The position numbers and the translations under genes were made by a program. 64,000 nt of DNA from Escherichia coli (GTDB taxonomy: Bacteria; Pseudomonadota; Gammaproteobacteria; Enterobacterales; Enterobacteriaceae): the NCBI RefSeq assembly GCF_045037415.1, contig NZ_CP173438.1. The stretch is one strand, 5' to 3'. Positions 8,204 through 43,140 of this stretch are shown here, one piece after another (the first letter of the stretch is position 1; every line of letters starts with the position of its first letter). The notes beneath the pieces were generated by a model that ran no database searches, was not told where the DNA came from, and worked only from the letters and a program-made list of their open reading frames with translations.

Positions 8204-9322
8204 TTATCCCGCCGGGATCATAACCAACAAAACATATCCCACCAGCGCCGCCCACAACAGCATCGGTATCGAATAAAGATGAAAACGCCACCAGATACGG
8301 CGATCGTTCGCCATCCGTAACGCAATCAAATTTGCCAGCGATCCGGGTAATAAACCAAAGCCACCTACGTTTACCGCCCATGCCAGTAATAAAGACGGTG
8401 GCACATAATTGAGCAGCAAAATGGTACTCGGCACGTTACTGATCACCTGCGATAAACCGATCGCCGTTAGCCATAATCCGGGTTCGGATAAATGACTCAC
8501 GTTACTTAACACCCCCTGCAAAACTGGCAGTTGGGTTAGTAAATGGACGTCGATAAACATCGCCATAAACACCAGCAGCAGCGTCCAGTCCACACTGAGC
8601 ACCACGCGACGCGCCAGCAGCGCAAAGCCCGCCGCCACAATCACCAGTCCCCACAGCTCTTGTTTTAACTCCAGCGCCGTCAGAAAGACGATATACAGCC
8701 CCAGACAACTCCACACCAGCCGCGGTTTCCACTCCGGCGTTTGCCCTCCTGTATGGTACTGCAGCGCCTTTCCAGGGAAACAACACCAGCACAACAGCAG
8801 GAGTGTCAGCATCATTGCGCCAGCCAGCGGTGCCATTTGGGCAATAAATCCGGCAAACGAAAGACCAGAACGTCCCCAGATAAGAATATTTTGCGGGTTG
8901 CCAATTGGCGTCAGTAGCGAACCAGCATTGACTGCCAGCGCCTCAAAAATAATCAGCCGATTAACCGGGATCTCACACAGTCTTTTTAGCGTGATAGTCA
9001 GCGGAACAACTATAAACAGCGCGACATCGTTGGTCAGAAAGGTAGAAAGCAGCGCCGCCGCCAGTACCATAAACATCGCCAGCCGACGCTCCGTAGCAAA
9101 ACGGCGCACCATTTTGCGCCCCAGCACATCAAAATAACCGCTTAACTCGACACCTTTAGTCAGCAGCATCAGGCCGCTTAAGGTGATGATGGTGTGCCAG
9201 TCGATAGCAGCAGGCCAGGATTTCGGTGCAAAGGGAACGAAAAAACTTAATCCGATGCCAACAAGAATTAATAACTGAAAAAAACGATCGCCTTGCAGCG
9301 TGCGTAAAAAAGGCAGGCTCAT
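8204..9322 (-). CDS. ybiR: inner-membrane transporter (ArsB/NhaD-like permease)
   Basis: 372 aa multi-pass hydrophobic protein; start overlaps the mntR stop (ATGA), so co-transcribed with mntR. Confidence 0.88.
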
Positions 9323-9786
9323 TTGGCACCGTGTTTCTGGGTAAACAAACGAAAGGCATCCAGCGTCTCTTCACTAACATGGTGCTCCATACCTTCCGCG
9401 TCGCGACGGGCGATTTCCGGACTGACGCCCAACACCAACAAGAAATTTTCGACTATCTGATGTCGCTCGCGGCTTTCCTGCGCCAGCTTCTCTCCTTCTG
9501 CCGTTAAAAACACGCCACGCCAGGGGATCATTTCAATCAGCCCCATGGTTGCCAGTCGCTTAAGCATTTTAGCCACCGTCGGTTGCGAAACCCCCAGACG
9601 AGCAGCCATGTCTACCTGACGAGCTTCCCCCACTTCCCTGATCAAGTCAGAAATCAGCTCAACATAATCATCAATAAGCTCGCGCCGATGCGCCTCTCTG
9701 ACCTGGCGGAACCCTTCAACGTGCTCTTCCACGTTCACTAACTGCGTCACTTTTTTTGCTGTTGGCGTACCTGCGCGACGACTCAT
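9319..9786 (-). CDS. mntR: manganese-responsive transcriptional regulator (DtxR family)
   Basis: 155 aa; DtxR-type HTH ([13 protein letters not shown]); matches recalled MntR. Confidence 0.92.
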
Positions 9787-9876
9787 TATGCTTCCTCATT
9801 ATGGTGACGCATACATAGCGTTCTCATTTCGTGCGCACATTGTAAACCAGAGTTGCGAAGGTACAAAAAATTAACG

Positions 9877-9913
9877 TTTTAGCAATAGCTATATAATATA
9901 GCCTGTGCTATAT
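9877..9913. promoter_or_regulatory. two candidate MntR operators in the mntS promoter
   Basis: perfect inverted repeat ATATAGC-ctgt-GCTATAT at 9896-9913 and an imperfect copy TTTTAGC-aata-GCTATAT at 9877-9894; resembles the recalled mntH MntR box CATAGC-N4-GCTATG. Confidence 0.6.
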
Positions 9914-9971
9914 CTGTATGTAATGCAATCATCCCTCAAGGATCGATGGGATTAGCAAGTCAGGAGGTCTT

Positions 9972-10100
9972 ATGAATGAGTTCAAGAGGTGTATGCGCGT
10001 GTTTAGTCATTCTCCCTTTAAAGTACGGTTAATGCTGCTCTCTATGTTGTGCGATATGGTCAACAACAAACCGCAGCAGGATAAACCTTCCGATAAATAG
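9972..10100 (+). CDS. mntS: small protein MntS (42 aa), manganese homeostasis
   Basis: ORF MNEFKRCMRVFSHSPFKVRLMLLSMLCDMVNNKPQQDKPSDK with AGGAGG RBS 6 nt upstream; below the ORF-track cutoff; matches recalled MntS; followed by a GC hairpin. Confidence 0.8.
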   Translation: MNEFKRCMRVFSHSPFKVRLMLLSMLCDMVNNKPQQDKPSDK

Positions 10101-10371
10101 CGGCGTCGCGGTACGCCGCTTCACTCCTGCTTTTATGCAGGCACAACGCGTTTTGGTCTGAAAAACCCCACTTTTTGTCGGATTTGCAATCCCCTTCGCA
10201 AAAGATTTGTTCGTCGGTAGTTGACCTGAACAGCAGCTCGCTCTATCTTCTTGCAGCCCTGCGTATATTGCGGCTCGCGGATGCGGACCCCTTTCCCCTC
10301 TTCACGCACTCTTGCAGGTATTGACCCTTGACGCCAGGGTAAGCACATGGCGTTTGTTACGATAGTGGCAT

Positions 10372-11955
10372 ATGAATTTAACCCTCAAAGAATCGCTTGT
10401 TACCCGTAGCCGGGTATTTAGCCCGTGGACTGCGTTCTACTTTTTACAGTCGCTATTAATTAACCTCGGCTTAGGTTACCCCTTCAGTTTGCTCTACACC
10501 GCTGCGTTTACGGCTATTTTGCTTTTGCTATGGCGAACATTGCCTCGCGTACAAAAAGTTCTGGTCGGTATCAGTTCGCTGGTGGCGGCTTGTTATTTCC
10601 CTTTTGCTCAGGCCTACGGCGCGCCTAACTTCAATACATTGCTGGCATTGCACTCCACCAATATGGAAGAGTCGACCGAAATCCTGACGATTTTTCCGTG
10701 GTACAGCTACCTGGTCGGCATATTTATTTTTGCGCTCGGCGTAATAGCAATCAGGCGAAAAAAAGAGAGTGAAAAAGCGCGCTGGAATACCTTCGACAGC
10801 CTGTGCCTGGTATTCAGTGTGGCGACATTTTTTGTTGCTCCCGTGCAAAACCTGGCCTGGGGCGGCGTATTTAAACTGAAAGATACTGGCTATCCGGTAT
10901 TTCGTTTTGCTAAGGATGTCATCGTCAATAATAACGAGGTGATTGAAGAGCAAGAACGGATGGCAAAACTTTCCGGAATGAAAGATACCTGGACGGTCAC
11001 TGCCGTTAAGCCGAAGTATCAGACCTATGTGGTGGTGATCGGAGAAAGCGCGCGTCGCGATGCCCTCGGTGCCTTTGGCGGTCACTGGGACAATACCCCG
11101 TTTGCCAGCAGCGTTAACGGTTTGATATTTGCTGACTACATTGCCGCCAGTGGCTCCACGCAGAAATCGCTTGGCTTAACGCTCAATCGCGTTGTCGATG
11201 GCAAACCACAGTTTCAGGATAACTTTGTCACCCTGGCAAATCGCGCGGGCTTCCAGACCTGGTGGTTTTCCAACCAGGGTCAAATCGGCGAATACGATAC
11301 CGCCATCGCCAGCATCGCCAAACGAGCAGATGAAGTGTACTTCCTGAAAGAAGGTAATTTTGAAGCAGATAAAAACACGAAAGACGAAGCGTTACTGGAT
11401 ATGACCGCTCAAGTGCTGGCGCAAGAGCACTCGCAACCGCAGCTGATTGTTCTACATCTGATGGGCTCGCATCCGCAGGCCTGCGACCGGACACAAGGAA
11501 AATACGAAACCTTTGTGCAATCGAAAGAAACGTCGTGCTATCTCTATACCATGACGCAAACAGACGATTTACTGCGCAAGCTGTACGATCAGTTACGCAA
11601 CAGCGGCAGCAGCTTCTCGCTGGTTTACTTTTCTGACCACGGTCTGGCCTTTAAAGAGCGCGGCAAAGACGTGCAATACCTTGCTCATGATGATAAGTAT
11701 CAGCAAAATTTCCAGGTGCCTTTTATGGTCATTTCCAGCGACGATAAAGCGCATCGGGTGATTAAAGCCCGCCGCTCGGCCAATGACTTCTTAGGCTTTT
11801 TCTCGCAGTGGACGGGAATTAAAGCGAAGGAAATAAATATCAAATACCCGTTTATATCTGAAAAGAAAGCCGGGCCGATATACATCACCAACTTCCAGTT
11901 ACAGAAGGTGGATTACAACCATCTCGGAACCGATATTTTCGACCCGAAACCTTAA
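10372..11955 (+). CDS. opgE: phosphoethanolamine transferase (OPG modification)
   Basis: 527 aa; N-terminal TM segments and C-terminal sulfatase-like domain. Confidence 0.9.
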   Translation: MNLTLKESLVTRSRVFSPWTAFYFLQSLLINLGLGYPFSLLYTAAFTAILLLLWRTLPRVQKVLVGISSLVAACYFPFAQAYGAPNFNTLLALHSTNMEESTEILTIFPWYSYLVGIFIFALGVIAIRRKKESEKARWNTFDSLCLVFSVATFFVAPVQNLAWGGVFKLKDTGYPVFRFAKDVIVNNNEVIEEQERMAKLSGMKDTWTVTAVKPKYQTYVVVIGESARRDALGAFGGHWDNTPFASSVNGLIFADYIAASGSTQKSLGLTLNRVVDGKPQFQDNFVTLANRAGFQTWWFSNQGQIGEYDTAIASIAKRADEVYFLKEGNFEADKNTKDEALLDMTAQVLAQEHSQPQLIVLHLMGSHPQACDRTQGKYETFVQSKETSCYLYTMTQTDDLLRKLYDQLRNSGSSFSLVYFSDHGLAFKERGKDVQYLAHDDKYQQNFQVPFMVISSDDKAHRVIKARRSANDFLGFFSQWTGIKAKEINIKYPFISEKKAGPIYITNFQLQKVDYNHLGTDIFDPKP

Positions 11956-12871: not shown

Positions 12872-13759
12872 ATGCCTGGTTCATTACGTAAAATGCCGGT
12901 CTGGTTACCAATAGTCATATTGCTCGTTGCCATGGCGTCTATTCAGGGTGGAGCCTCGTTAGCTAAGTCACTTTTTCCTCTGGTGGGCGCACCGGGTGTC
13001 ACTGCGCTGCGTCTGGCATTAGGCACGCTGATCCTCATCGCGTTCTTTAAGCCATGGCGACTGCGCTTTGCCAAAGAGCAACGATTACCGCTGTTGTTTT
13101 ACGGCGTTTCGCTGGGTGGAATGAATTATCTTTTTTATCTTTCTATTCAGACGGTACCGCTGGGTATTGCGGTGGCGCTGGAGTTCACCGGACCACTGGC
13201 GGTGGCACTGTTCTCTTCTCGTCGCCCGGTAGATTTCGTCTGGGTTGTGCTGGCGGTTCTTGGTCTGTGGTTCCTGCTACCGCTGGGGCAAGACGTTTCC
13301 CATGTCGATTTAACCGGCTGTGCGCTGGCACTGGGGGCCGGGGCTTGTTGGGCTATTTACATTTTAAGTGGGCAACGCGCAGGAGCGGAACATGGCCCTG
13401 CGACGGTGGCAATTGGTTCGTTGATTGCAGCGTTAATTTTCGTCCCAATTGGAGCGCTTCAGGCTGGTGAAGCACTCTGGCACTGGTCGGTTATTCCATT
13501 GGGGCTGGCTGTCGCTATTCTCTCGACCGCTCTGCCTTATTCGCTGGAAATGATTGCCCTCACCCGTTTGCCAACACGCACATTTGGTACGCTAATGAGC
13601 ATGGAACCGGCTCTGGCTGCCGTTTCCGGGATGATTTTCCTCGGAGAAACACTGACCCCCATACAGCTGCTGGCGCTCGGCGCTATCATCGCCGCTTCAA
13701 TGGGTTCTACGCTGACAGTACGCAAAGAGAGCAAAATAAAAGAATTAGACATAAATTAA
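12872..13759 (+). CDS. rhtA: threonine/homoserine exporter (DMT family)
   Basis: 295 aa from MPGSLRKMPVWLP...; 10-TM EamA-like protein; RBS gagaaagg. Confidence 0.9.
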   Translation: MPGSLRKMPVWLPIVILLVAMASIQGGASLAKSLFPLVGAPGVTALRLALGTLILIAFFKPWRLRFAKEQRLPLLFYGVSLGGMNYLFYLSIQTVPLGIAVALEFTGPLAVALFSSRRPVDFVWVVLAVLGLWFLLPLGQDVSHVDLTGCALALGAGACWAIYILSGQRAGAEHGPATVAIGSLIAALIFVPIGALQAGEALWHWSVIPLGLAVAILSTALPYSLEMIALTRLPTRTFGTLMSMEPALAAVSGMIFLGETLTPIQLLALGAIIAASMGSTLTVRKESKIKELDIN

Positions 13760-13768
13760 ATTTACATT

Positions 13769-13801
13769 TCTGCATGGTTATGCATAACCATGCAGATTTT
13801 C
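13769..13801 (+). terminator. rho-independent terminator after rhtA
   Basis: hairpin tctgcatggttatgcataaccatgcaga followed by tttt. Confidence 0.8.
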
Positions 13802-13884
13802 TCGCTACTTTTCCTCTACACCGTCTTTATATATCGAATTATGCAAAAGCATATTTATTCCGAAAATTCCTGGCGAGCAAATAA

Positions 13885-14562
<678 letters not shown>

Positions 14563-41846: not shown

Positions 41847-42551
41847 TTAACGGCGGTTGCCGAAGATCCGCAGCAACATCAGGAACAGGTTGATGAAGTC
41901 CAGATACAAGGTTAACGCGCCAAGAATGGAATATTTGCGCAGGTTCGACGTGTCGCGAGTATCAATCTGCTCACCCATATTTTTCAGTTTCTGGGTGTCA
42001 TACGCCGTCAATCCGACAAAGACAATCACGCCGATGTAGGTGACTGCCCACATCAATGCTTCGCTTTTCAGCCAGAAGTTAACCAGCGATGCCAGCACAA
42101 TGCCGATTAACGCCATAAACAGCATATTGCCAAAGCCGCTTAGATCGCGCTTCGTGGTGTAACCGTACAGGCTCATTGCGCCGAACATCCCGGCAGTAAC
42201 GACGAAAGTACTGGCGATAGAAGCAGCGGTATAGACAATGAAAATACTGGAAAGCGTAAGACCCGTCAGCGCCGAATAAAGCATAAAGAGCATCGTCGTT
42301 ACACCTGCGCTCAGCTTTTGAATCATCGCTGATAACACAATAACCAATGCTAATTGCGCGATGATCAGACCGATTAAAAAGACACGGTTAGTAAACAACA
42401 GCTCCATCACGGCCGCGGAATTAGCCGCATACCAGGCAACAAATGCTGTCAGCAACAAGCCAACGGTCATCCAGCCATAGACTTGCGCCATATAAGTTTG
42501 CAAGCCAGCCCGGGGTTGTACGATTGAATCAGAACGTGGGAATCTGTCCAT
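41847..42551 (-). CDS. ybhL: Bax inhibitor-1/YccA-family inner membrane protein
   Basis: 234 aa; 7-TM BI-1 family. Confidence 0.88.
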   Translation of the reverse strand: MDRFPRSDSIVQPRAGLQTYMAQVYGWMTVGLLLTAFVAWYAANSAAVMELLFTNRVFLIGLIIAQLALVIVLSAMIQKLSAGVTTMLFMLYSALTGLTLSSIFIVYTAASIASTFVVTAGMFGAMSLYGYTTKRDLSGFGNMLFMALIGIVLASLVNFWLKSEALMWAVTYIGVIVFVGLTAYDTQKLKNMGEQIDTRDTSNLRKYSILGALTLYLDFINLFLMLLRIFGNRR

Positions 42552-42687
42552 GACTTTCTCCTGAAGATATAAGGAATATCTTAAGGATACTGCAAAATGA
42601 TGAGGCTGTGCATCGACGCAGCGTAAACGGATGTACTGAGCGGTGAAATTGCCGGACGCAGCGGTGCCTTATCCGGCTAACAATAAA

Positions 42688-43140
42688 CTACCAGCGTTTT
42701 GCCGCCTGCTGATCGCTCTCCCGAGCTTCGACCCAGCGGTCGCCTTCCGGCGTGGCTTCGCGCTTCCAGAACGGTGCGCGGGTTTTGAGATAATCCATAA
42801 TAAACTGCCCGGCTTCAAACGCACTGCTGCGATGCGCACTGGTAACACCGACAAAAACAATTTCATCGCCCGGCCATAATTCACCAATGCGGTGAATTAC
42901 CGTGACGCGCCCCAGCGGCCAGCGGTTACGCGCTTCATCAACGATTTCTGCCAGTGCTTTTTCTGTCATTCCCGGATAGTGTTCGAGGGTTAATGCTTTG
43001 ACGCTGTCGCCCAGGTTATGGTTGCGCACCTTACCGGTAAAGGTGACTACCGCACCGTCTTCGTCACGCTCAGCCAGCCACGGGTACTCTTCTCCTACGC
43101 TGAACGGCTGCGGGCCGACAACAATTTTGGTTTCTGCCAT
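42688..43140 (-). CDS. moaE: molybdopterin synthase catalytic subunit
   Basis: 150 aa; operon position. Confidence 0.93.
   Translation of the reverse strand: MAETKIVVGPQPFSVGEEYPWLAERDEDGAVVTFTGKVRNHNLGDSVKALTLEHYPGMTEKALAEIVDEARNRWPLGRVTVIHRIGELWPGDEIVFVGVTSAHRSSAFEAGQFIMDYLKTRAPFWKREATPEGDRWVEARESDQQAAKRW

Follow-up and report, generated by a model that had tools for sequence, protein, structure and literature searches.

The closest described systems are mntS (b4705) and rybA (b4416) of Escherichia coli K-12, with the MntR miniregulon (Waters, Sandoval & Storz 2011; Martin et al. 2015; Wright et al. 2023/2024). In K-12, the mntS open reading frame (ORF) sits within RybA and MntR:Mn represses its transcription (PMC4361602); repression of a PmntS-egfp reporter by Mn requires mntR (PMC9806134). 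The small protein MntS is an inhibitor that binds the exporter MntP, and in the presence of Mn it self-associates (bioRxiv 10.1101/2023.06.02.543501); its overexpression causes Mn sensitivity (PMC4361602; bioRxiv 10.1101/2023.06.02.543501). The same preprint proposes the SitA signal peptide, linked to MntR, as the source of MntS, and explains the divergent position of mntR and mntS as an inheritance from an ancestral mntR-sitABCD unit (bioRxiv 10.1101/2023.06.02.543501). In such divergent mntR-sitABCD units the regulator likewise lies head-to-head with a gene related to Mn uptake and under MntR control, whereas in the locus studied here a signal-peptide-sized ORF alone remains, with no sitBCD.

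This locus lies in a 64,000-nucleotide stretch of E. coli DNA, the whole of which we call the window. It is the canonical, textbook E. coli mntS (RybA) locus, already annotated and characterised, and we put at about 95% the probability that a canonical mntS/RybA locus, repressed by MntR through two dyads, explains the whole feature. Much was known beforehand: the literature already covers mntS/RybA, its repression through MntR, its effect on MntP and where it came from in evolution, and RefSeq genomes carry the gene as an annotated feature. The result thus carries little weight as a discovery; what it illustrates is that a gene of fewer than 60 codons and its operators were recognisable from raw sequence alone. 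The anatomy of the locus, its family membership, its conservation and the positions of its operators are our own observations; Mn- and MntR-dependent repression and the inhibition of MntP are taken from the literature.

Two genes lie on the minus strand, ybiR (8204-9322, from a listing of ORFs of at least 30 amino acids) and mntR (9319-9786), which overlap by 4 nt, and two on the plus strand, mntS (9972-10100, 42 codons and a stop) and opgE (10372-11955, from the same listing and annotation). The mntR ORF encodes a 155-residue Mn-sensing repressor that scored 269 bits against NF008273 (cutoff 153) in an NCBIfam profile search and is annotated as such in a 100%-identical genome. Over 1.1 kb, the locus matches many annotated E. 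coli chromosomes at 100% identity; the genes annotated there are ybiR, mntR, mntS and opgE, and the segment was found in 5,421 of 5,426 complete E. coli genomes. The window is the reverse complement of the MG1655 record, in which mntS is annotated at 852869-852997 (minus), rybA at 852725-853064 (minus) and mntR at 853183-853650 (plus). Because the 585-bp mntR-opgE intergenic region aligns with that of MG1655 with 10 substitutions and no indels, a window position x converts linearly to MG1655 coordinate 853182-(x-9787). Annotation of both the identical RefSeq strain and MG1655 agrees with the original prediction, made from the sequence alone, which had placed mntS, two MntR-type dyads and a GC hairpin here; all of these elements are present where it put them. 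It had also described mntS as divergent from mntR-ybiR and co-directional with opgE in this sequence; the orientation holds, but it is nothing peculiar to this sequence, being the arrangement of K-12 and of other genera.

Compared with the K-12 locus, the window has the same neighbours in the same orientation, and none of the 10 substitutions falls in the dyads, the −10 box, the Shine-Dalgarno (SD) sequence or the hairpin. The MntS protein is identical, the single difference within the ORF being synonymous (CAG for CAA). The remaining substitutions lie beside the mntR start (one), in a hairpin of the mntS 5′ untranslated region (UTR; T for C at 9947) and in the mntS-opgE spacer (seven), and we find no functional differences between the two loci.

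The mntS product, MNEFKRCMRVFSHSPFKVRLMLLSMLCDMVNNKPQQDKPSDK, has 42 residues. As had been pointed out, it falls below a 60-residue listing cutoff, and the default setting would omit 9972-10100, which appears when the minimum is 30. It matches the equivalog family NF033226 (small_MntS) over residues 1-39 with 96 bits against a cutoff of 36 (E = 6e-28). Its strong ribosome-binding site is AGGAGG at 9962-9967 on the plus strand, 4 nt before the ATG, and is 99.8% conserved among 75 non-redundant enterobacterial sequences. We collected 76 orthologues, 68-100% identical; a length of 40-44 residues and a conserved N-terminal core, MNEFKRC..HSPFKVRL, mark the family, and this locus agrees with both. 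Across codons 1-30, identity is 0.84, 0.95 and 0.71 at the first, second and third codon positions, a pattern that reads as a coding signature and that, with the invariant SD, points to selection on the protein.

Upstream of mntS, two MntR-type dyads had been placed 60-95 nt from the start codon, and we find them 59-95 nt before the ATG, at exactly the predicted positions. Dyad 1, TTTAGCAATAGCTATAT (9877-9894), has the TAGC-N4-GCTA core TAGCAATAGCTA at 9880-9891; dyad 2, ATATAGCCTGTGCTATAT (9896-9913), has the core TAGCCTGTGCTA at 9899-9910. A perfect TATAAT on the plus strand (9892-9897), the −10 hexamer of mntS/rybA, bridges them, 7 nt upstream of the annotated RybA 5′ end at 9905; we found no convincing −35 hexamer before this box. 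GenBank gives a 5′ end at 9905 and the supplement of Kim 2012 one at 9922 (NC_000913.2 852270, 1,402 reads), 17 nt further downstream, which leaves the precise placement of the dyads with respect to +1 uncertain. The dyad centres fall at −19.5 and −0.5 if transcription starts at 9905, where dyad 1 overlaps the −10 box and dyad 2 is centred on the start, and at −36.5 and −17.5 if it starts at 9922. The perfect TATAAT would favour 9905. Under either 5′ end, core promoter elements are overlapped, so the placement of the dyads is compatible with repression.

The same ATAGC-N4-GCTAT type of dyad recurs at other MntR-linked genes. It occurs upstream of mntH in MG1655 (AAACATAGCAAAGGCTATGTTT), twice upstream of mntP in MG1655 (TTTAGCCAAAGCTATGT and ACATAGCTTAGGCTATAT) and in the dps promoter (ACATAGCTGGTGCTATAC). 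The last of these is in the window: TAGCN4GCTA matches the 64 kb three times against 0.66 expected, with at least three matches in 2 of 100 shuffled sequences, and the match other than the mntS dyads has its core at 13997-14008 (dyad 13994-14013), 51 nt before the dps ATG at 14059. The dps promoter is a reported MntR target (Yamamoto et al. 2011). Like mntS, mntP has two sites, the first with a weaker TTTAGC half, as in mntS dyad 1, which resembles TTTAGCCAAAGCTATGT; mntS dyad 2 resembles the dyads of mntH, mntP and dps. The arrangement of the pair differs between the two genes: the mntS dyads abut, 19 bp from centre to centre, and their place over the −10 box and +1 is a geometry of repression, whereas the mntP dyads lie far upstream at a distance of about 40 bp from each other, and mntP is activated by MntR.

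From these elements, we propose the following mechanism. When cytoplasmic Mn2+ is high, Mn-loaded MntR dimers would occupy the two adjacent 18-bp dyads, cover the mntS −10 hexamer and start, and block RNA polymerase. Such promoter occlusion is, we infer, the mode of repression, and the anatomy fits it; the two abutting dimers might also cooperate. When Mn is scarce, the mntS promoter would be free, and mRNAs of roughly 220 nt and longer would be made, from which the 42-residue MntS would be translated at its strong SD site. MntS would then bind and inhibit the exporter MntP, and Mn would be retained. The GC hairpin that straddles the stop codon would set the 3′ end of the shortest transcript, acting as an intrinsic terminator that in E. 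coli has lost most of its U-tract. The head-to-head position of mntR and mntS would be ancestral, as proposed from the mntR-sitABCD unit.

The arrangement is conserved well beyond E. coli. A scan of species-dereplicated genomes with MntR as the query, covering Escherichia, Citrobacter, Salmonella, Enterobacter, Klebsiella, Raoultella, Kluyvera, Kosakonia, Leclercia, Lelliottia and other genera, gave 80 loci; four had no mntS match, three of them in loci that contain no upstream DNA. Where upstream DNA is present, mntS lies upstream of and divergent from mntR in 76 of 77 Enterobacteriaceae species loci, and nearly all of these have the two start codons 180-191 bp apart. Among 76 other species, 74 carry both dyads without a mismatch and two carry them with one; the offset between the dyads is 19 bp throughout. 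Identity to the window is 0.99 for dyad 2 (98.9%), 0.86 for dyad 1, 1.00 for the SD and 0.96 for the 3′ hairpin, and 0.45-0.66 in the variable stretches between conserved elements. The mntS −10 hexamer is mostly TAnAAT in other genera.

Just past dyad 2 lies a 12-nt block, CTGTATGTAATG (9914-9925), with 97% conservation among genera. The alternative rybA 5′ end at 9922 falls inside it, and the dyads and TATAAT do not account for the block. We considered a third MntR half-site at 9914-9925 and rejected it, as by eye it has no dyad partner; a Fur box at 9919-9935 was likewise set aside by eye, as it needs a gap and lies in a poorly conserved stretch.

Among explanations that go beyond or against repression of mntS alone, the one that survives best is that both dyads also regulate the divergent mntR-ybiR transcript, either by activation or by hindering the alpha-CTD or UP-element contacts of RNA polymerase. 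We regard this as doubtful, although it is the leading alternative. The mntR start itself is placed by published data. The supplement of Kim 2012 gives an mntR transcription start site (TSS) at NC_000913.2 852360, window 9832, with a 46-nt leader, and this position also scores highly in a Cappable-seq supplement, which has just one further same-strand TSS nearby, 852190, a minor one inside mntS and antisense to it. From this TSS, we assign on the minus strand a −10 box, TACAAT (9839-9844), and a −35-like TTGTAC (9861-9866). The −10 box lies within an invariant block, CATTGTAAA (9838-9846), and is 98.9% conserved across genera, with flanks at about 55-59%. Two other minus-strand promoter candidates that a scan picked up, ATTACA-18-TATATT (9924-9895) and ATGAGA-18-CATAAT (9827-9798), were discarded, since the start is at 9832 in both TSS datasets and neither candidate has a same-strand TSS of its own in the Cappable-seq list, as was an ACATAGC half-site near mntR (9813-9819), which has no partner half and is not conserved.

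Counted from this TSS, the two dyads have their centres at −53.5 and −72.5 and together occupy −45 to −81, which places them upstream of the −35-like TTGTAC. They overlap none of the mntR −35 box, −10 box and TSS, and because they lie upstream of the −35 box, simple autorepression of mntR by occlusion is not supported. An effect from upstream, through alpha-CTD/UP-element contacts or by activation, would be possible because MntR activates mntP from upstream sites. Several further observations speak for such a role. The mntR TSS is just 73 bp from the mntS TSS at 9905, the stretch between the mntR −10 box and the dyads is essentially free of indels in the 20 genera displayed, though the sequence of the promoter spacer varies, and MntR is annotated as a dual regulator. 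A 2011 ChIP-chip study by Yamamoto is also said to have listed 'mntR' as a target. Against it, beyond the position of the dyads, stand two natural rearrangements and the literature. In Leclercia adecarboxylata (locus L035), a GC-rich insertion of about 245 bp at the equivalent of window position ~9880 lies between the mntR promoter and dyad 1; the start-codon spacing is 432 bp instead of about 185, and the dyads, TATAAT and mntS stay together. In E. coli that carry a prophage at this site, mntR is left with just dyad 1 and one half of dyad 2. The insertion and the prophage split argue that the dyads belong functionally to mntS, and the accessible literature contains no report of control of mntR or ybiR by Mn or MntR.

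Direct repression of mntS remains the reading we prefer. A second layer of control may lie in the 5′ UTR. A conserved plus-strand stem-loop at 9932-9950, with a 6-bp stem and the 7-nt loop AAGGAUC, was compared in 34 distinct versions, in most of which the loop reads ANGGANN. Pairing occurs in 185 of 204 cells, against 166.6 ± 2.8 in shuffled versions (0 of 1,000 shuffles reach the observed value), with changes from CG to UA at stem pairs 5 and 6. The third pair is mismatched in E. coli, and the stem-loop is absent in Enterobacter sp. kpr-6. The CCUC of its left arm (9934-9937) can base-pair with GAGG in the SD (9964-9967), and RNAalifold proposes pairing with the SD as an alternative. As the pyrimidine arm is thus complementary to the SD as well, the ability of the CCUC/CCUUC arm to pair with either the GAAGG-like arm or the SD suggests a possible translational switch. 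That the control region does more than repress mntS, with MntR modulating mntR-ybiR and the 5′-UTR hairpin switching translation of MntS, we consider rather unlikely, and neither idea appears in the accessible literature.

At the 3′ end of the transcript, E. coli differs from most other genera. The GC hairpin predicted to follow the ORF, at 10100-10119, is contained in a plus-strand structure at 10099-10120 with an 8-bp stem and a 6-nt loop, which overlaps the mntS stop codon. It has a folding energy of −13.8 kcal/mol (z = −2.0) and is 96% conserved; Kluyvera shows a compensatory change from U-A to A-U. Like intrinsic (Rho-independent) terminators, it has a GC-rich 8-bp stem, directly at the stop codon, a mapped 3′ end and, in most genera, a U-tract. 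The tail after the hairpin is UUCAUUUUU in most other genera, which gives them a standard intrinsic terminator, and UUCACUCCUGCUUUU in E. coli; because of this tail, and unlike intrinsic terminators, the E. coli hairpin fails the consensus terminator scan, which called no terminator here, and a canonical U-tract is absent after the hairpin in this sequence. Term-seq nevertheless places a 3′ end at MG1655 852845 (window 10124), 4 nt past the hairpin and labelled primary for mntS, and a second at 852816 (window 10153; Adams 2021 supplement). Because the hairpin is conserved and a Term-seq end lies 4 nt after it, we accept it as the 3′-end structure of the short mntS transcript despite the negative terminator scan. 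Read-through transcripts of several lengths, from 205 to about 400 nt, have been described (Martin 2015, PMC4361602), and the loss of the U-tract in E. coli fits them. Two more Term-seq 3′ ends fall inside ORFs (Adams 2021 supplement), at 9775 on the minus strand, 11 nt into mntR, and at 9996 on the plus strand, 24 nt into mntS; these could be products of early termination, pausing or decay.

The longer transcript raises the question of whether the regulatory RNA RybA, and not the peptide, carries its main function, or at least a further one. MG1655 carries an annotated ncRNA rybA of 340 nt (852725-853064; 5′ end 853064), which corresponds to window 9905-10244 on the plus strand, and non-coding blocks are conserved at 9914-9925 and in the 3′ region. 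Gerstle 2012 is cited as reporting that RybA represses aroF and aroL under peroxide stress. The fold of the whole of RybA is not unusual (z = −0.6), however, and a search of positions 9000-11000 on both strands against Rfam at E ≤ 1 returned no match, that is, no known riboswitch or sRNA model. The codon-position pattern and the invariant SD described above speak for the protein instead, as do the phenotypes of overproduction, which are attributed to the protein and are independent of Hfq (PMC4361602); Martin 2015 concluded that MntS works as a protein and not as an sRNA (PMC4361602). A regulatory role of the RNA itself thus seems improbable to us, more so than an effect of the dyads on mntR. 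In the mntS-opgE spacer, conserved islands occur in 10176-10262, with an inverted repeat, TTTGC-N10-GCAAA, at about 10183-10202. A promoter-like TTGACC-17-TATCTT (10221-10249), which coincides with the annotated RybA 3′ end at 10244, is probably the opgE promoter.

That the dyads arose as palindromes by chance in an AT-rich promoter, or owe their conservation solely to a phage attachment site, can be dismissed almost entirely: the region is indeed AT-rich and TATAATATAGC at 9892-9902 is the crossover core of a P2-family prophage, but the third of the three matches in 64 kb falls at the MntR-linked dps promoter, mntH and mntP carry the same type of dyad upstream, conservation of ~99% extends across genera mostly without a prophage, and Mn- and MntR-dependent repression of PmntS is published.

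At this attachment site, the crossover core consists of the mntS −10 box and the left half of dyad 2. In E. coli 23CRST049, a P2-family prophage of ~29 kb sits between mntR and mntS, leaving the two genes about 29 kb apart, and the intergenic region is split in about 30 of the 5,426 complete E. coli genomes. The observation draws on window 9892-9902, on positions 13644-13850 and 42540-42738 of locus L086, and on locus L014. The prophage integrase has no close relative in the collection of deposited phages. Citrobacter sp. R56 has the same breakpoint, and the junction on the mntS side of the prophage regenerates both TATAAT and dyad 2.
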